36,048 bases of DNA from the IMG/VR virus record IMGVR_UViG_3300045988_030305; one strand, 5' to 3'. Made by a program: the position numbers and the translations under genes. Below are positions 9,389 through 22,565 of this stretch, one piece after another (the stretch's first letter is position 1; every line of letters begins with the position of its first letter). The notes under the pieces are model-generated. The model had not been told where the DNA came from and made no database searches. It saw only the letters and a list, made by a program, of their open reading frames with translations. The DNA is from a virus.

Positions 9389-9825
9389 AACTTCCTCCAT
9401 CTCGCAAGCTTCGCCGCGAACACATTTCTCCACGTCAGGGTTTTCTGTGTCCCGCTCCCGCTCGGCGCTGCTTTGCTATAGCTATATCCGCCGAAGCTCT
9501 CCGACAGGTACGGGCTTGCCACTGTCGCCGCGTTCTGGGCGTTCCATTCCTCGATCTCTTCGGCAATGGCTATGACCGCCTGTGGTATTGCAAGCGCCCA
9601 GACGGCCCCGTGGAAGCTCTCAGGGGCTAATTTGTCATCTGCGGCGCCGTACCGGTGAACGCCGTCGTTAAACACGCTCCCGATTATCCGGTAATACTGT
9701 CCGTTCTGGAGGAACGGCAGCGTGAGAGCCCCGTCAACGACGGTGTATGTGCCGACATGAACACCACCCGGCACGGTGAACCAGTTGCGGAGAAATCCGC
9801 ATACTTCGTCAAGCGTTTCATTCAT
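9385..9825 (-). CDS. Head-tail connector protein (gp6-like, 146 aa)
   Basis: The C-terminal ...SESFGGYSYSK...W.NVFAAKLARWRKL pattern resembles gp6-like connector proteins (from memory). It is the first gene after the capsid gene. Confidence 0.55.
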   Translation of the reverse strand: MNETLDEVCGFLRNWFTVPGGVHVGTYTVVDGALTLPFLQNGQYYRIIGSVFNDGVHRYGAADDKLAPESFHGAVWALAIPQAVIAIAEEIEEWNAQNAATVASPYLSESFGGYSYSKAAPSGSGTQKTLTWRNVFAAKLARWRKL

Positions 9826-9846
9826 GCTGCCGTCCTCCTTTGCTTA

Positions 9847-10959
9847 TCAGCCCATGTATACGCAAGCAAGCTCGGGGTAAATGAGCTTATAGCCGTACAG
9901 CACGTCCATGGACATTACTTCCTGTTTGGTCTCGGTATTGAAGCCGCGGTACACGCGGACGGAAACACCGTTGTACTCGTCACTCGCGACATAGGCTTCT
10001 ACGCCCTTGGGGAGCATCAGCGGACGGGTGACGAAAGCGATCGCGTTCTGGTGGAATGCGATATTCGCGGTGTAAGCTCCGCCGACAGTGATAGCCTTGT
10101 TGTCGCTGGTGTCCTGCTGCAGCGCCGGCGCGATCTCGATGTCCTGATCAGCGGTGTCAAGCGTGCCTGCTCCGGTAACGACATAACTGGTGGTGTCGCC
10201 CGCGATGGTGAAGCGGTCGCCGACCTTGAATGCAGTCGTGAGACCGTCAACGTGGAGCTTAGTCGCGCCCTTGGTGGCTGCGCCATCAATAAGCACTGTG
10301 CCGGTCGCGCCGACTGCGTGCTCAAGCACGCCCTGCGACATGTAGTTATCAAGGCCGAACAGGCGGCCGATCTCGCCCTCGCGCAGGGTCTGCGGAGTGC
10401 CAGCTTCGGAGACGCGAGTCAGGTTCGGGATCTCAGACAGCTTTGCGTCTGCCTCGACGTCCCATACTGCGCGGCGGTTGGTGAGCGGTGCCTTGTTCTT
10501 GTTGAGATACTTGCGAATCGCAGACAGCGCCGCAAGATCGTTCGGCGTGGTGCCCGCAGTGCCGAGAACGCCCGGAATCTGCGAGTACAGCGCAAGGCCG
10601 TCGCGGTTGATCTTCTCGGCCAGAGCTACGGCGGCAGGCTCGATAAAGTCGGTCTGAAGCTTCGCCTCGGTGAGGTTGGTCGCGCCCTCGATTGCGCCCC
10701 ACTTCACATCAACGGTTGCGATCTTGTCGAGCTTCACTGCGACGGAGCTCTCCTTCATGTCCTGACGCTGGACAGTGTCTCCGTCCTTGAAGCTCTTCGC
10801 CTCAAGGACTACCGGCTTCTTCACCTGAATGGTGTCGCCGAGGTCAGAGAAGTCATTGGAAAAGTCTCTGTAGCAGAGGTTCGGCAGAACGAGGTTCTCG
10901 TGCAGGCGCATGAGCGTCTGACGGGCGATGTTCTGCATGGTGATAAAGGTATTTGCCAT
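9847..10959 (-). CDS. Major capsid protein (370 aa; resembles the P22-coat-like family)
   Basis: Position after the scaffold gene and size fit. The N-terminus is MANTFITMQNIARQTLMRLHENLVLPNLCYRDF. Confidence 0.85.
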   Translation of the reverse strand: MANTFITMQNIARQTLMRLHENLVLPNLCYRDFSNDFSDLGDTIQVKKPVVLEAKSFKDGDTVQRQDMKESSVAVKLDKIATVDVKWGAIEGATNLTEAKLQTDFIEPAAVALAEKINRDGLALYSQIPGVLGTAGTTPNDLAALSAIRKYLNKNKAPLTNRRAVWDVEADAKLSEIPNLTRVSEAGTPQTLREGEIGRLFGLDNYMSQGVLEHAVGATGTVLIDGAATKGATKLHVDGLTTAFKVGDRFTIAGDTTSYVVTGAGTLDTADQDIEIAPALQQDTSDNKAITVGGAYTANIAFHQNAIAFVTRPLMLPKGVEAYVASDEYNGVSVRVYRGFNTETKQEVMSMDVLYGYKLIYPELACVYMG

Positions 10960-10965
10960 TTCTGA

Positions 10966-13667: not shown

Positions 13668-15113
13668 TTACTCCTCGCCTCCGGCGTTATTGGCTGGGGG
13701 ATTATTGTTATTATTAGGCGGGTTCCCGTTATTGGCAGCGGCAAAATCGTTGCCATAACGAGCGACGTTATTGTTCTCCATAGCATCAATCCGTGCCGCG
13801 ACTTCGTCTGCCGAAAGCCACGGCAGCTTCTTTAACGCCAGCTCTTCTCCTACCAGATCCAGCGCCTCCATGACCATGTCCGTCTGCTCTTTCTGGTTGC
13901 TGACTCGGTTACGTTTGAAGCTCGGTGTTGCGTCCTCTTCCGATATGCCCTGAAGCGCGAGCAGCGCCACAATGCACTCAATGATCTGGAACTCGAAGTC
14001 GTCCGCCTCCTCGTCCATGGGCTGATAGGCGGCGTCAATGTGGTCATTCGTGGCGCCGGCGGCGATGGTATGTACGTCAAGTCCGCCGAAGTCCTCATAA
14101 ATCCCCGCTCTGATCTCCTGCAGATATTCTTTCCGGGCTTCATACGGTATCTGCTGGGTGTACGGCTCGGCAGCATCATTCTCGCCGTCGTCATATTCGG
14201 AATTCACCGACGCAATGTGCTGCGTCTTCAAGCGGGTGCGGAACTCGGCGAGCGATGCATCATCCATACCGCCCGCTCTCTTGACGATCCAGTATATTTC
14301 CGCGCAGTCCTGAAGATTGTTCGCGAATCCGGAACGGATGAGGTCAAAGGAATCTATCTGCTCGCGCATACCGACAAGGGTGCTCTGCTTGAGTTCCGAG
14401 CCGTAAAGCGGGATTATCGGCAGAACGCCGTTCCAGTTCTCTTCCCCGGCCACCTCGACCTCGCCCGTTGCCTCTACCTTGCGTATCGTGATCTTGTAGG
14501 CCGTGTATCTGTCCCGCTCGGGCGGTATTGCTTCGGGTTGCCTGTCTTTCCGGTATATGAATTTCTTATAGCCCCGCTCCGTGTAGAGTACGGCGATCAG
14601 CGGCTTATCAGCCGCAAGCTGCCAGAATCGGATTCCCGCTCTCACTGCGCCGGTGTCCTCGTCCGGCAGTGGCTTGAACTCCGTGACTGGGAACACGTAC
14701 ATCTGACTGCCGTTCCAGAAGATGAAGCTCCGGCCGTGGATCAGCGCCTTGTACGCGGCCTGTTTAATCTTCACGTCAGCATTCCTGCCAAGCTTCTTCT
14801 TTGTCTCTTCTTTCTCGAACGTGAGGCCGTTGCCCAGAGAGTACATATTCCGTTGCGTGTTCAGCCTGTGGAAAAAGTTGGAGCAGATTTTATTGTTTGC
14901 CGCCGTGATATCCACGATACGAACGCCAGTCACATCCATCATGGTCTGGACGTAGTTGCATATCGTCGTGTTACGCTTTTTGTCGTATTGATCCGCCGTC
15001 AAGGCGATTTCGTACTCTACGCTGGCCTTATGTTCCGCGATTGCACGCTTTACGAAGTCTGCGAGCTCTTCCGGCTTCACAGTCTCGAAGTCCTGATAGG
15101 TCAGGAAACTCAT
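13668..15113 (-). CDS. Portal protein (481 aa)
   Basis: Size fits and there is an ATGA overlap with terL. The C-terminus has an Asn/Pro-rich tail. Confidence 0.85.
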   Translation of the reverse strand: MSFLTYQDFETVKPEELADFVKRAIAEHKASVEYEIALTADQYDKKRNTTICNYVQTMMDVTGVRIVDITAANNKICSNFFHRLNTQRNMYSLGNGLTFEKEETKKKLGRNADVKIKQAAYKALIHGRSFIFWNGSQMYVFPVTEFKPLPDEDTGAVRAGIRFWQLAADKPLIAVLYTERGYKKFIYRKDRQPEAIPPERDRYTAYKITIRKVEATGEVEVAGEENWNGVLPIIPLYGSELKQSTLVGMREQIDSFDLIRSGFANNLQDCAEIYWIVKRAGGMDDASLAEFRTRLKTQHIASVNSEYDDGENDAAEPYTQQIPYEARKEYLQEIRAGIYEDFGGLDVHTIAAGATNDHIDAAYQPMDEEADDFEFQIIECIVALLALQGISEEDATPSFKRNRVSNQKEQTDMVMEALDLVGEELALKKLPWLSADEVAARIDAMENNNVARYGNDFAAANNGNPPNNNNNPPANNAGGEE

Positions 15114-16429
15114 AGATATTGCCCTCCAAATATCGTCGAAATGGTTTTGTCTTTGCCGTCTTTATACGCACTGCGCAGCAATGGGCGCAGGATCGTGTAT
15201 GCGAAATACCGGGTGTCGTCCATCGCGTGGTCATTCTCTTTGATGACCGTGTCGGTTGTGGCTTTTTCGTTCCAGCGGTACAGCTTGAACTCCCGCAGGC
15301 AGCTCTCGCAGCTCTCGTGAACGGTTATCAGTCCCGCCTTCAGGCACGCCGCCGTGAAGCGGATACCGTCAAGCACATCGTTTTTCGCTTTCTTCGTCTG
15401 GAACTTTTTCTTTTTCCGGATCAGCGTTATGAATGACGCCGCCGATGGGTCTATTACTACGCAGCTGATCGTCAGGTCACCCGCCAGCTCTTCAAGCTTG
15501 GCGTAGTATTCGTCGTCCGTCAGTTGCTCCCGCTCCTCACGGCCAGAATAGTAAAACTCCCGCTCCCGCTGCGCTTTCTTTCCGTCCCATGACCATAGCC
15601 CTGCCGAAAAGGCGTTGAATGTGCCGTAGTCTATCGAGATGAACCAGCGCTGGGGATTCGCCGCGTGCTCGGTCTTGATGTTCGCTTCTGTGAACTCGGT
15701 GTACACAAGCCCCTCGGCCACGCACCACTCGCCGAGGATGAAGCGCTGATAGAACACGCCGCTGTACATCCCCCGGTATCGGGCTTTTGTCTCCTCGCTC
15801 AGAGAGAGGTTATCATCCATCGTGAAATGGAGATAGATCAGATGCTTCCCGCTCTCCTCGCCGAGCTTATCTATCCATTCTTTCTTGAACCAGTGCTCCG
15901 GGCTGTCCGGGTTGCAGTTAAACCAGAACTTTGAACCCTCGACCGAGCATCGCGCCGTCGCTTGGTTGACGAAGCTCTCAGGCATCAGCGCCACTTCGTC
16001 AAACAGCACGCCCGCGAGCGTTATGCCCTGAACCAGATCCTGGCTGCTCTCGTCCTTGCCGCCGAAGATGTAGAAATAATTGATCACCGAGCCGCGGCGT
16101 ATCTCGATGTAATTGTCCGCGCGGTGATAGGCGTATTTATATCCCCGCGTTCGCAGCATCCGTTGCAGCGGTCCGAGTACGTTTCTCCGGAAACTGCCGA
16201 CTGTTTTCCCGCACATGCCGAAGGCCTCTTCATGGAACGACGACATTGCCCACATAACGTAGGACAGCGCCATTGACACCGTCTTCCCGCTCCTGATCGC
16301 GCCGTCAGCGATGATGCCCTCATAGTCGGAAACTCCGCTCGACGGCATCCACCATGTCAGAACCTGCTTTTGTTTGTGGGAAAACGGTTGAAACTTGAAT
16401 CCGGCGCTCCTTATGCTTCGTCTTGCCAT
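15110..16429 (-). CDS. terL: Terminase large subunit (PBSX-type, 439 aa)
   Basis: Walker A-like DGAIRSGKT is present, and the N-terminus FQPFSHKQKQVLTWW is typical of PBSX-family TerL. Confidence 0.9.
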   Translation of the reverse strand: MARRSIRSAGFKFQPFSHKQKQVLTWWMPSSGVSDYEGIIADGAIRSGKTVSMALSYVMWAMSSFHEEAFGMCGKTVGSFRRNVLGPLQRMLRTRGYKYAYHRADNYIEIRRGSVINYFYIFGGKDESSQDLVQGITLAGVLFDEVALMPESFVNQATARCSVEGSKFWFNCNPDSPEHWFKKEWIDKLGEESGKHLIYLHFTMDDNLSLSEETKARYRGMYSGVFYQRFILGEWCVAEGLVYTEFTEANIKTEHAANPQRWFISIDYGTFNAFSAGLWSWDGKKAQREREFYYSGREEREQLTDDEYYAKLEELAGDLTISCVVIDPSAASFITLIRKKKKFQTKKAKNDVLDGIRFTAACLKAGLITVHESCESCLREFKLYRWNEKATTDTVIKENDHAMDDTRYFAYTILRPLLRSAYKDGKDKTISTIFGGQYL

Positions 16430-21159: not shown

Positions 21160-21489
21160 TTAATCCTCCTCCGTGCCCGTGTCTGCCCGCCTCTCCGCGG
21201 CTACATAGAGCCGGAACATCCGTCTCAGCTGTGAGCGTAGGATGCTGTTCTCGATCTGCTTGCAGGCAAGCTTATGTTTGAGGTTCGCGGCGTTCTCTTC
21301 TGCTTCGTCCTCCCTCTTATCATTCTCTCTTGCCAGTTCTGTCAGATTCTCAAGGGCAGATGCGGCCTCGGTGAATACCGCGCGGCAAGTTGCCTCCTGC
21401 CGCCGCTTAACCGGGCAGTCTTTGGGGCAGTCCCCGAGTGTCTCGGTCGCGTAAGTACGCAGGGCTTCGCTGATTTCTTCGTATGTCAT
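21160..21489 (-). CDS. Hypothetical coiled-coil protein (109 aa from the ATG at 21489)
   Basis: ATGA overlap with the methyltransferase stop. The product starts [16 protein letters not shown]. Confidence 0.55.
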   Translation of the reverse strand: MTYEEISEALRTYATETLGDCPKDCPVKRRQEATCRAVFTEAASALENLTELARENDKREDEAEENAANLKHKLACKQIENSILRSQLRRMFRLYVAAERRADTGTEED

Positions 21490-22565
21490 GTCAGTTCCTC
21501 CTTCAGTGCTTTGAATATCGGGTACGCTTGCTGCGGTACAACAGCGTTGCCTAAGCATTTAAGTCTGTCCACCCGATTGGGAAGCCCATTAACCACTCTA
21601 CCCACGTCGGGTTCAGTTGCCCAGCAACGTCCGTCCGCAAGCTCCTGTGATTGCCCCCGCCCGTGCTGCCCTGGCTGTCCGCCGCGCATGGCGTGGTGTA
21701 TAACTTCTCCAGTGCTATTGCCTGCGTCAAATTGCACTTGCCCGGTTCTTTCTGTCTCGACGGTGGGACGGATTGCAGCGTGTCCTTGTACTCGTTTGCC
21801 CTCGGCGTGGGAAACAGCTTCGCGTATGTTGTCAGTCCCATACCTGCTTTCGCGCTGCTGCCCGGTGCATTGTTGTTCCCATTTACTGTTGGCGTCGGCA
21901 CAAGACCGTTCGCCTCCGCTCTCGCATCCTCGTATGCCTGGCGCATCAGCGGGTCTACCTGCTCCCTCAAATTGCTGGGCCGGCGCCGGTTCTTCCTGCC
22001 GCCGTTCGTTGCCTGTCTCTTCATTGCCTCGTAGCTGCGGCAGTCCATGCTGTCCATCGTGTTTGGCGTAGCCCACAAAGAAGACCCGGCTTCTTCTGTG
22101 CCAAGCTCCGACAGCCGCAGCTTCATAATTGAACACGACGACGTTATAGCCAGCGTGCTCCAAATCCTTGACCACTTGCCCGGCGGCAAGCTTGATGATT
22201 CCAGGTACATTCTCACCGACGACTCAATGCGGGCGCAGCTCTCGGATAACTCGGAGCATTTCAGGCCATAGGTAACGGTCGTCCCCTTTACCTTTCTGCT
22301 TTCCAGCCACACTGAATGGCTGACAGGGGAATCCCCCGGAAATAACGTCAACTGTTCGTAATCCTGTTCGCTCATAAAAGCTCTCCTTTGTCAGGGTTCT
22401 GATATCTCGCCACCGCGGCACATCCGGCCAGTGCTTTTCAAGTACCTTGGTCTGATAGTTCGCCCATTCGCACTGGCCTACGGTGGTGAATCCTGCCCAC
22501 TCGGCAGCGAGGTCAAGCCCCCCTATACCGGTGAATAAGGATAGGTGTGTGAGCCTGTCGCTCAT
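21486..22565 (-). CDS. DNA (cytosine-5)-methyltransferase reading frame (frame A, 360 codons) interrupted by one in-frame TGA at 22224..22226
   Basis: Motifs I (LFTGIGGLD), IV (GGFPCQPFS), VI (ENVPG), VIII ([10 protein letters not shown]) and X (LGNAVVPQ) are all in one frame. The 113-aa and 229-aa track ORFs share this frame and are separated by the TGA plus 16 codons. Confidence 0.8.
21551..22375 (-). CDS. Embedded +1-frame ORF (frame C, 274 aa) carrying MTase target-recognition-like TP repeats and WLMGFP
   Basis: AAGGAG lies 7 nt upstream of the ATG at 22375. The product contains LWATPNT, LVPTPTV, LFPTPRA, LYTTPCA and ends [19 protein letters not shown]. Third-position G+C is higher than in frame A. 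Confidence 0.6.

Follow-up and report, generated by a model that had tools for sequence, protein, structure and literature searches.

A probable nested two-polypeptide cytosine-5 methyltransferase in a temperate phage and its relatives

A 36,048-nucleotide (nt) stretch of viral DNA (IMG/VR record IMGVR_UViG_3300045988_030305; the whole stretch is called the window below) carries on its minus strand, at 21486-22565, a cytosine-5 DNA methyltransferase (C5-MTase) locus written in two long overlapping open reading frames (ORFs). Our results indicate that the locus very probably represents a two-polypeptide enzyme with the architecture of M.EcoHK31I, in which a catalytic polypeptide, alpha, is read in one frame (frame A) and a recognition polypeptide, beta, is nested within it in another (frame C). 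Alpha would be translated from 22565, giving first the S-adenosylmethionine (AdoMet)-binding and catalytic motifs I-VIII. The ribosome would then continue through about 150 codons of recognition-domain DNA in the other frame, producing a disordered alpha spacer, and alpha would end with the pre-X segment and a motif X helix packing back onto the catalytic domain. Beta would be initiated independently at its own Shine-Dalgarno (SD) sequence and ATG (22388-22375), inside alpha and just 5' of motif IV. It would comprise about 99 residues written over alpha motifs IV-VIII, followed by TP-repeat modules and motif IX, and would stop where motif X begins. The two chains would associate non-covalently, with beta supplying the small DNA-recognition domain. 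By analogy with M.EcoHK31I and M.AquI, both proteins are expected to be made and to have to assemble.

The alpha gene (21486-22565, minus strand, as are all features of the locus given here unless marked otherwise) has 359 sense codons and one internal TGA, and frame A matched Pfam PF00145 over residues 7-355 (E=2.5e-39). In the frame-A translation, motif I (LFTGIGGLD, AdoMet binding) lies at 22512-22538, motif IV (GGFPCQPFS, with the catalytic Cys) at 22311-22337, motif VI (ENVPG) at 22200-22214, motif VIII at 22071-22100 and motif X (LGNAVVPQ) at 21531-21554, which bears out the reading frame and motifs given in the original prediction on this DNA. Motif VIII is followed by a spacer of about 148 codons rich in G, Q, R, E and S (21627-22070), where the recognition-domain DNA is read in the -1 frame. 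Together, motif X and the pre-X segment before it occupy 21531-21626, and pre-X is dual-coded with beta motif IX. The beta gene (21551-22375; 274 codons) is in the +1 frame relative to alpha and wholly within it, and its SD sequence AAGGAG (22383-22388) stands 7 nt 5' of the ATG, within the alpha codons for K-E, at the spacing given in the original prediction. The beta N-terminal extension (residues 1-99, 22079-22375) is overprinted on alpha motifs IV-VIII; the DNA of motif IV also encodes beta residues 13-22, and that of motif VI is read as RMYLES. The target-recognition region (21617-22078) contains four TP modules (LWATPNT, LVPTPTV, LFPTPRA, and LYTTPCA), motif IX lies at 21566-21616, and the stop codon TAG (21551-21553) falls inside the L-G codons of alpha motif X. 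In a canonical monomeric C5-MTase, all ten motifs and the recognition domain are in one frame, whereas here the recognition modules and motif IX were found in the +1 frame. Frame A alone reaches its PF00145 score because the variable region is absent from the model, and frame C matched no model in Pfam or NCBIfam; a profile search of beta against PDB sequences also gave no match.

The layout can be mapped onto a single-chain methyltransferase, P0297 (441 aa), which equals A(1-170) + C(100-271) + A(323-363). This is in accordance with the earlier proposal that a canonical enzyme would be rebuilt here by reading A, then C, and then A again. Residues 1 to about 180 of P0297 correspond to frame A with motifs I-VIII, residues 214-300 to frame-C residues 157-271 (E=1e-16), residues 321-386 to frame-C residues 100-165 (E=1e-23), and residues 395-435 to pre-X and X of frame A; beta motif IX aligns to motif IX of P0297. 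Canonical single-chain C5-MTases with TP repeats, represented by P0297, have parts that are all homologous to those of the window locus and in the same order, but they are one polypeptide in one frame and contain nothing matching beta residues 1-99. These 99 residues had no match in P0297, which makes them an overprinted addition. AlphaFold was also run, with a shallow alignment, on P0121, an intact alpha homologue (96% identical). The model had an alternating strand-helix core of moderate confidence at residues 1-147 (predicted local distance difference test, pLDDT, 30-79 by block), no secondary structure at residues 148-342 (pLDDT <30), and a helix at residues 343-362 (block pLDDT 54-77). 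It appears to agree with a catalytic domain, a disordered spacer and a motif X helix, and adds little.

Selection on the two frames

Relatives of the locus were fetched from IMG/VR (160 loci) and from GTDB genomes (80 loci), and 104 distinct viral loci had motifs I, IV, and X in one frame and motif IX in the +1 frame. From motif VIII to motif IX (mean 125 codons), frame A contained zero stops in all of these 104 loci, and of 66 such loci in bacterial genomes, 65 likewise had no frame-A stop in the recognition region. Homologues with a second frame full of stops, the case named in the original prediction as speaking against it, were found at none of these 104 viral loci, and only one of the 66 genomic loci had any frame-A stop. 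By comparison, the third sense frame of the viral loci averages about 8.3 stops in the recognition region. As a conservative test, synonymous codons were then shuffled within one frame, with its protein and codon usage kept. For 41 clusters (<80% nt identity), permutation of frame C gave 4.6 expected frame-A stops, with a median P(0)=0.003 and a summed log10 P of about -100. In the window itself, 3.6 frame-A stops were expected in the recognition region with frame-C codons permuted (P(0)=0.006), 2.8 frame-C stops were expected over motifs IV-VIII with frame-A codons permuted (P(0)=0.016), and the third frame showed 8 stops against 7.9 expected. Similarly, frame C over motifs IV-VIII was open in 102 of the 104 loci, against about 2 stops expected with the frame-A protein fixed.

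These results bear on an alternative in which base composition or codon bias, and not selection, left the long second frame open. Such an origin could be argued from the 54.5% G+C of the window and from the long antisense ORFs elsewhere in it. However, 2-9 stops per locus are still expected when protein and codon usage are kept in the permutation, the third sense frame has as many stops as expected, and the antisense frames were open in none of the 104 relatives. In addition, three loci with similar recognition modules (L032, L074, and L123) have motif X in frame C; their frame A ends just after motif VIII, and their recognition regions contain 10, 18, and 26 frame-A stops, respectively, indicating that frame A stays open only where it must reach motif X. 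Base composition or codon bias is refuted as the cause by the permutation, third-frame, antisense and L032/L074/L123 controls, and its probability is close to nil. Both frames are kept open by selection, as had been proposed from simpler counts that were reproduced here: 30 of 274 frame-C codons end in T and 79 of 274 begin with AA, AG or GA, so that 8.65 frame-A stops would be expected, and one was observed. The G+C content at third codon positions, put earlier at about two thirds for frame C and about one half for frame A, was 0.70 and 0.53, respectively, and the longest other same-strand nested ORF in the window, previously given as about 115 codons, is 114 aa.

The antisense strand of the locus carries a 265-aa ORF (21274-22071, plus strand), which makes three of the six frames open there. 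It was considered as a third gene and rejected, as antisense frames are never open in the 104 relatives, and it was judged to be due to chance. Two more long antisense ORFs in the window, 9655-10965 (plus strand; 436 aa) and 14040-15320 (plus strand; 426 aa), face the major head gene and the portal/terminase genes. In 5 of 80 viral loci (L034, L036, L045, L050, and L055), an extra frame change was present inside the recognition region, which puts the distal recognition half and motif IX into a third arrangement; the cause is either indels from assembly or decay of the copies.

The frame under constraint changed along the locus. Before the start of frame C, where that frame is non-coding, the ratio of non-synonymous to synonymous polymorphism (pN/pS) of frame A was 0.15 and the diversity at its four-fold sites was 0.49. 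Over motifs IV-VIII, the frame-A pN/pS was again 0.15, the diversity at A four-fold sites was 0.35, and frame C was held at a subset of positions. In the recognition region, pN/pS was 1.1-1.3 for frame A and 0.5-0.7 for frame C, with a diversity of 0.58 at C four-fold sites. Over the last ~22 frame-C codons, which encode motif IX in C and pre-X in A, frame A was constrained, frame C had a pN/pS of 0.22 and a four-fold diversity of 0.32, and synonymous diversity was lowered in both frames. A naive frame-C pN/pS above 1 over motifs IV-VIII would make the beta N-terminus unconstrained; this reading was overturned by the analysis of four-fold sites. At least 10 A four-fold sites were frozen there across 57 loci (codons 71, 72, 74, 78, 121, 128, 131, 144, 149, and 152), and they fix beta residues Q8, L9, L11, D15, L58, P64/65, W68, L86, and S89. 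At several of them no alternative base makes a stop, indicating that it is the frame-C amino acid that is under constraint. Translated in frame A, the recognition region gives a product with 15% hydrophobic and 68% disorder-promoting residues; the alpha spacer is kept open, and its amino-acid sequence is otherwise free.

The alignment of frame-C proteins showed a conserved N-terminal part of about 96 residues, a modular middle and a conserved C-terminus, with units of the W-x-T-P type gained and lost among relatives in the middle region. The variation there (alignment columns 100-230) is by whole modules of about 15-45 residues, each around W-x-T-P. Frame A is left open by each module variant seen; the modules in circulation therefore appear to be pre-adapted to the dual-frame constraint. 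At one locus, L052 (~2374-2580), the motif IX DNA translated in frame A (GMADGLPDWVDG) looks like the genuine pre-X segment downstream (EPDIPRVAKGIANRVERLK), and these two stretches, separate in L052, coincide on the same DNA in the window type (21558-21626). A possible origin of the compact form, hinted at by this likeness, is a deletion between two similar stretches; alternatively, pre-X may have come from a frame-shifted copy of motif IX DNA.

Initiation of beta and comparison with known enzymes

The start of beta is conserved. In 81 of the 104 viral loci, 47 or 50 nt separate the first ATG in the open part of frame C from the PCQ codons that follow it, and an SD core (GGAG, GAGG or AGGA) was present 4-18 nt 5' of the beta ATG in 92 of the 104, compared with 19% of the other ATGs in the same genes. 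This SD is kept even where the frame-A amino acids at that place differ. At the other end, the frame-C stop is 2-10 nt from the first motif X codon in 82 of the 104 loci.

The original prediction had left three options, an overprinted or split gene pair, frameshift decoding, and a recent rearrangement, of which the first is supported here. A recent rearrangement is excluded, since the same layout persists in many phyla and down to ~30% identity. Decoding by programmed frameshifting would give a single chain by a +1 shift from A to C after motif VIII and a -1 shift from C to A before motif X. The A-C-A chimera does give the order of the canonical enzyme, and one locus, L219, has a natural in-frame fusion of motif IX and motif X. 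However, no conserved slippery site was found at the frame junctions, with a canonical -1 heptamer in the last 25 frame-C codons in only 11 of the 104 loci, and in none of these loci does frame A have a zero-frame stop after motif VIII that could pause the ribosome and programme the +1 shift. Frameshifting would also give no reason for frame A to be open through 100-300 codons of the recognition region, or for frame C to be open back to a conserved SD and ATG, and M.EcoHK31I works as two separate polypeptides. Moreover, motif IX and pre-X share the same DNA in the window type, so an A-C-A chimera would lose pre-X. A frameshifted single chain is very unlikely in the light of these data.

In L219 (a contig of a Planctomycetota metagenome-assembled genome, ~1293-2288), motif X follows directly after motif IX in the beta frame. 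Frame A is open throughout, keeps pre-X, and then enters unrelated sequence. This arrangement may stem from an indel introduced in sequencing or from a recent shift by 1 nt, or it may be a viable beta-X fusion.

The nested pair can be compared with known enzymes. M.AquI had been put forward as the precedent. Like the window locus, M.AquI is split in the variable region and has overlapping ORFs, but its alpha carries motifs I-VIII and its beta motifs IX and X, and the larger of its subunits stops within the variable region. The window locus has motif X in the alpha frame, which places all of beta inside alpha and requires translation of alpha to run across the entire recognition region. The enzyme that provides the exact precedent is M.EcoHK31I of E. 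coli HK31, reportedly described by Lee, Kam, and Shaw in 1995, with an alpha said to be of ~309 aa and a beta of ~176 aa. These sizes differ from the 359 and 274 codons of the window genes. As in the window, its beta ORF lies in the alpha ORF on the same strand, with motifs I-VIII and X in alpha and motif IX in beta. It was reported that M.EcoHK31I beta is encoded entirely within alpha in another frame, that both chains are needed for activity, that methylation is abolished once the beta start codons are silently removed from alpha, and that the first 42 beta residues are dispensable in vitro (PMC2836561, PMC3404938). The dispensable N-terminus fits the weakly constrained beta extension found here. 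M.EcoHK31I is part of a restriction-modification system, whereas the window gene is in a phage replication module, and no endonuclease was identified among the scanned subset of neighbouring genes. Our results depart from the published description of M.EcoHK31I in two respects: the recognition modules are in beta, and alpha has a long spacer selected only to stay open.

Several observations weigh against a nested two-polypeptide enzyme of the M.EcoHK31I type. The literature places the recognition domain of M.EcoHK31I, by prediction, in alpha, while here it is in beta, and the likeness drawn to that enzyme is one of layout, from its published description. We infer the translation of both products in the family from sequence. 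The AlphaFold model of beta alone had low confidence (pLDDT 41.7, 37-sequence alignment). The fusion in L219 suggests that a beta-X product might be viable, and the same product would result from a -1 shift at the end of beta. Furthermore, alpha is broken by a TGA in the window itself, and the mechanism may not operate in this copy.

Other arrangements were present among the relatives. L032, L074, and L123, which are of a rarer type, match the M.AquI layout, with motifs I-VIII in alpha and the recognition region, IX and X in beta. The nesting in L123 (901-2292) is the other way round, as a 463-aa beta-type protein with the N-terminal extension, recognition modules, IX, pre-X and X encloses in another frame the whole 180-aa alpha with motifs I-VIII. 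Among cultured phages, the Paenibacillus larvae Fernvirus phages also have the nested pair, which some records (for example Tadhana gp54/gp55) annotate as two coding sequences (CDSs) named 'DNA methyltransferase', and their beta is ~30% identical to that of the window. Their pre-X lies 3' of the beta stop, while pre-X of the window overlaps motif IX. Other Fernvirus records annotate alpha only, and the P. larvae phage genome papers list the genes without remark on nesting. Non-covalent assembly has been reported for split fragments of M.HhaI, M.SssI, and M.BspRI, which form active enzymes (PMC3404938); these are engineered and, unlike the window pair, are not encoded in overlapping frames.

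The nonsense codon in the window copy

The only internal stop of frame A is the TGA at alpha codon 114 (22224-22226). Its presence agrees with the original prediction, although it is a nonsense mutation private to this copy and not a tolerated feature of the design. It results from a single C to A change, with TGC (37), TGG (18) or TTC (1) at this position in the relatives; it is unique among ~57 aligned relatives, and the codons on either side are the same as in the nearest of them. Cys114 is invariant in 44 close alpha homologues. On its sequence, alpha of this copy would be cut at 113 residues unless the UGA is read through.

Artefact or recoding might explain these features, with the two frames arising from assembly or sequencing indels, or with TGA recoded under genetic code 4 or as selenocysteine (Sec). 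The contig is a short-read metagenome assembly, and the Cys of the relatives at the TGA site is the usual signature of a Sec/Cys pair. On the other hand, more than 170 independent loci, some of them in complete genomes or cultured phages, share the frame layout, TGA is the commonest stop in the window and terminates 28 of its 43 genes, and no stable hairpin resembling a Sec insertion sequence (SECIS) was found 3' of the alpha TGA (z=0.18 for the downstream fold). The code-4 and Sec readings were rejected, given that TGA is a normal terminator and that no SECIS-like hairpin is present, and this alternative as a whole is extremely improbable.

A different matter is whether the window locus is a decaying pseudogene, its alpha dead by the TGA and its beta a functionless leftover ORF. 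We lean slightly towards this reading for the window copy. The TGA replaces an invariant Cys/Trp codon, is unique among the relatives, and is a normal stop in the window. There is no start codon between the TGA and motif VI, so that re-initiation cannot rescue ENV. The same base change also causes Ala51Glu in beta, at an Ala conserved in more than 90%. However, apart from the TGA neither frame has a defect, and an uninterrupted homologue shares 96% identity with alpha. An identical beta protein occurs on a second contig, and the TGA variant is thus probably not a one-off assembly error. In addition, Trp is natural at codon 114 in 18 relatives, so near-cognate read-through by tRNA-Trp would be expected to give a normal alpha. 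The window copy is most likely inactive, or makes full-length alpha only through leaky UGA read-through. Decay would concern this copy alone and not the nested architecture.

Breadth of the nested layout and its meaning

The window phage is temperate, with integrase, large terminase, portal and major head genes, and the nearest relatives of its methyltransferase locus are in Oscillospiraceae genomes from the human gut. The alpha ATG overlaps the stop of the upstream gene (ATGA, 22562-22565), and the alpha TGA overlaps an in-frame ATG of the downstream ORF (ATGA, 21486-21489), which suggests translational coupling along the operon.

Both polypeptides have large families. Frame C had 1986 homologues at E<=1e-3, which are standalone proteins of 190-280 aa, none with a Pfam domain, and which span the whole query down to ~53% identity; an exhaustive HMMER search with frame C gave 8477 representative clusters. 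Frame A had thousands of full-length, uninterrupted PF00145 homologues of 290-365 aa. In PHROGs, frame A corresponds to phrog_363 and frame C to phrog_1008, both labelled DNA methyltransferase. The nested layout was found in at least 170 independent loci, complete genomes and cultured phages among them, and is kept down to ~30% identity in many phyla. Its members include prophages of Oscillibacter valericigenes Sjm18-20, Cuneatibacter caecimuris DSM 29486 and Clostridium porci. A search of plasmids gave two distant matches only. A search of E. coli genomes matched the motif IX/pre-X stretch only, yet it pointed to a prophage in which alpha and beta are nearly co-extensive (L164, E. coli PT62, 1198-1957). 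Its alpha (245 aa) and beta-type ORF (251 aa) start 4 nt apart, the latter after the former, and RefSeq annotates alpha alone. A homologue of this gene, L165, has a pseudogene flag and an internal stop.

These results have a consequence for annotation. Standard gene callers forbid long same-strand overlaps, and one of the two genes is therefore usually lost. The gene calls of the source contig (ENA ERZ27229815 k119_92161) include beta only, and alpha only is annotated in phages HB10c2 and AlexiD and in an E. coli prophage. With the recognition modules in the nested gene, a prediction of specificity from the PF00145 protein alone reads a meaningless spacer as the recognition domain. The nested architecture itself has been known, though not widely, since M.EcoHK31I (1995), and its breadth, including the cultured P. 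larvae phages, appears to be unreported: within the literature searched, which left out most subscription journals, nested, overprinted or dual-frame phage methyltransferases were treated in the EcoHK31I and AquI papers only, and no description of the layout as a general feature of phage methyltransferases was found. The main added value of the present analysis lies in this scale (at least 170 loci in many phyla, with cultured phages among them) and in the annotation consequence.

The family can serve as a source of natural heterodimeric C5-MTases for split-enzyme designs such as those built on M.EcoHK31I (PMC2836561). It also offers at least 170 natural replicates for the study of overlapping-gene evolution, with segments where each frame in turn is a mere conduit, short stretches that are truly dual-coded, and relatives that resolved the overlap differently, in AquI-like and single-chain forms. 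On balance, we consider that nested alpha/beta may be the standard layout of a very large clade of phage and prophage C5-MTases in many phyla, with the recognition domain in an unmodelled nested gene that is often overlooked in annotation. If so, these loci would rank among the largest natural collections of long same-strand dual-coding genes in viruses of prokaryotes, in which alpha would carry 100-300 translated codons selected only to stay open.

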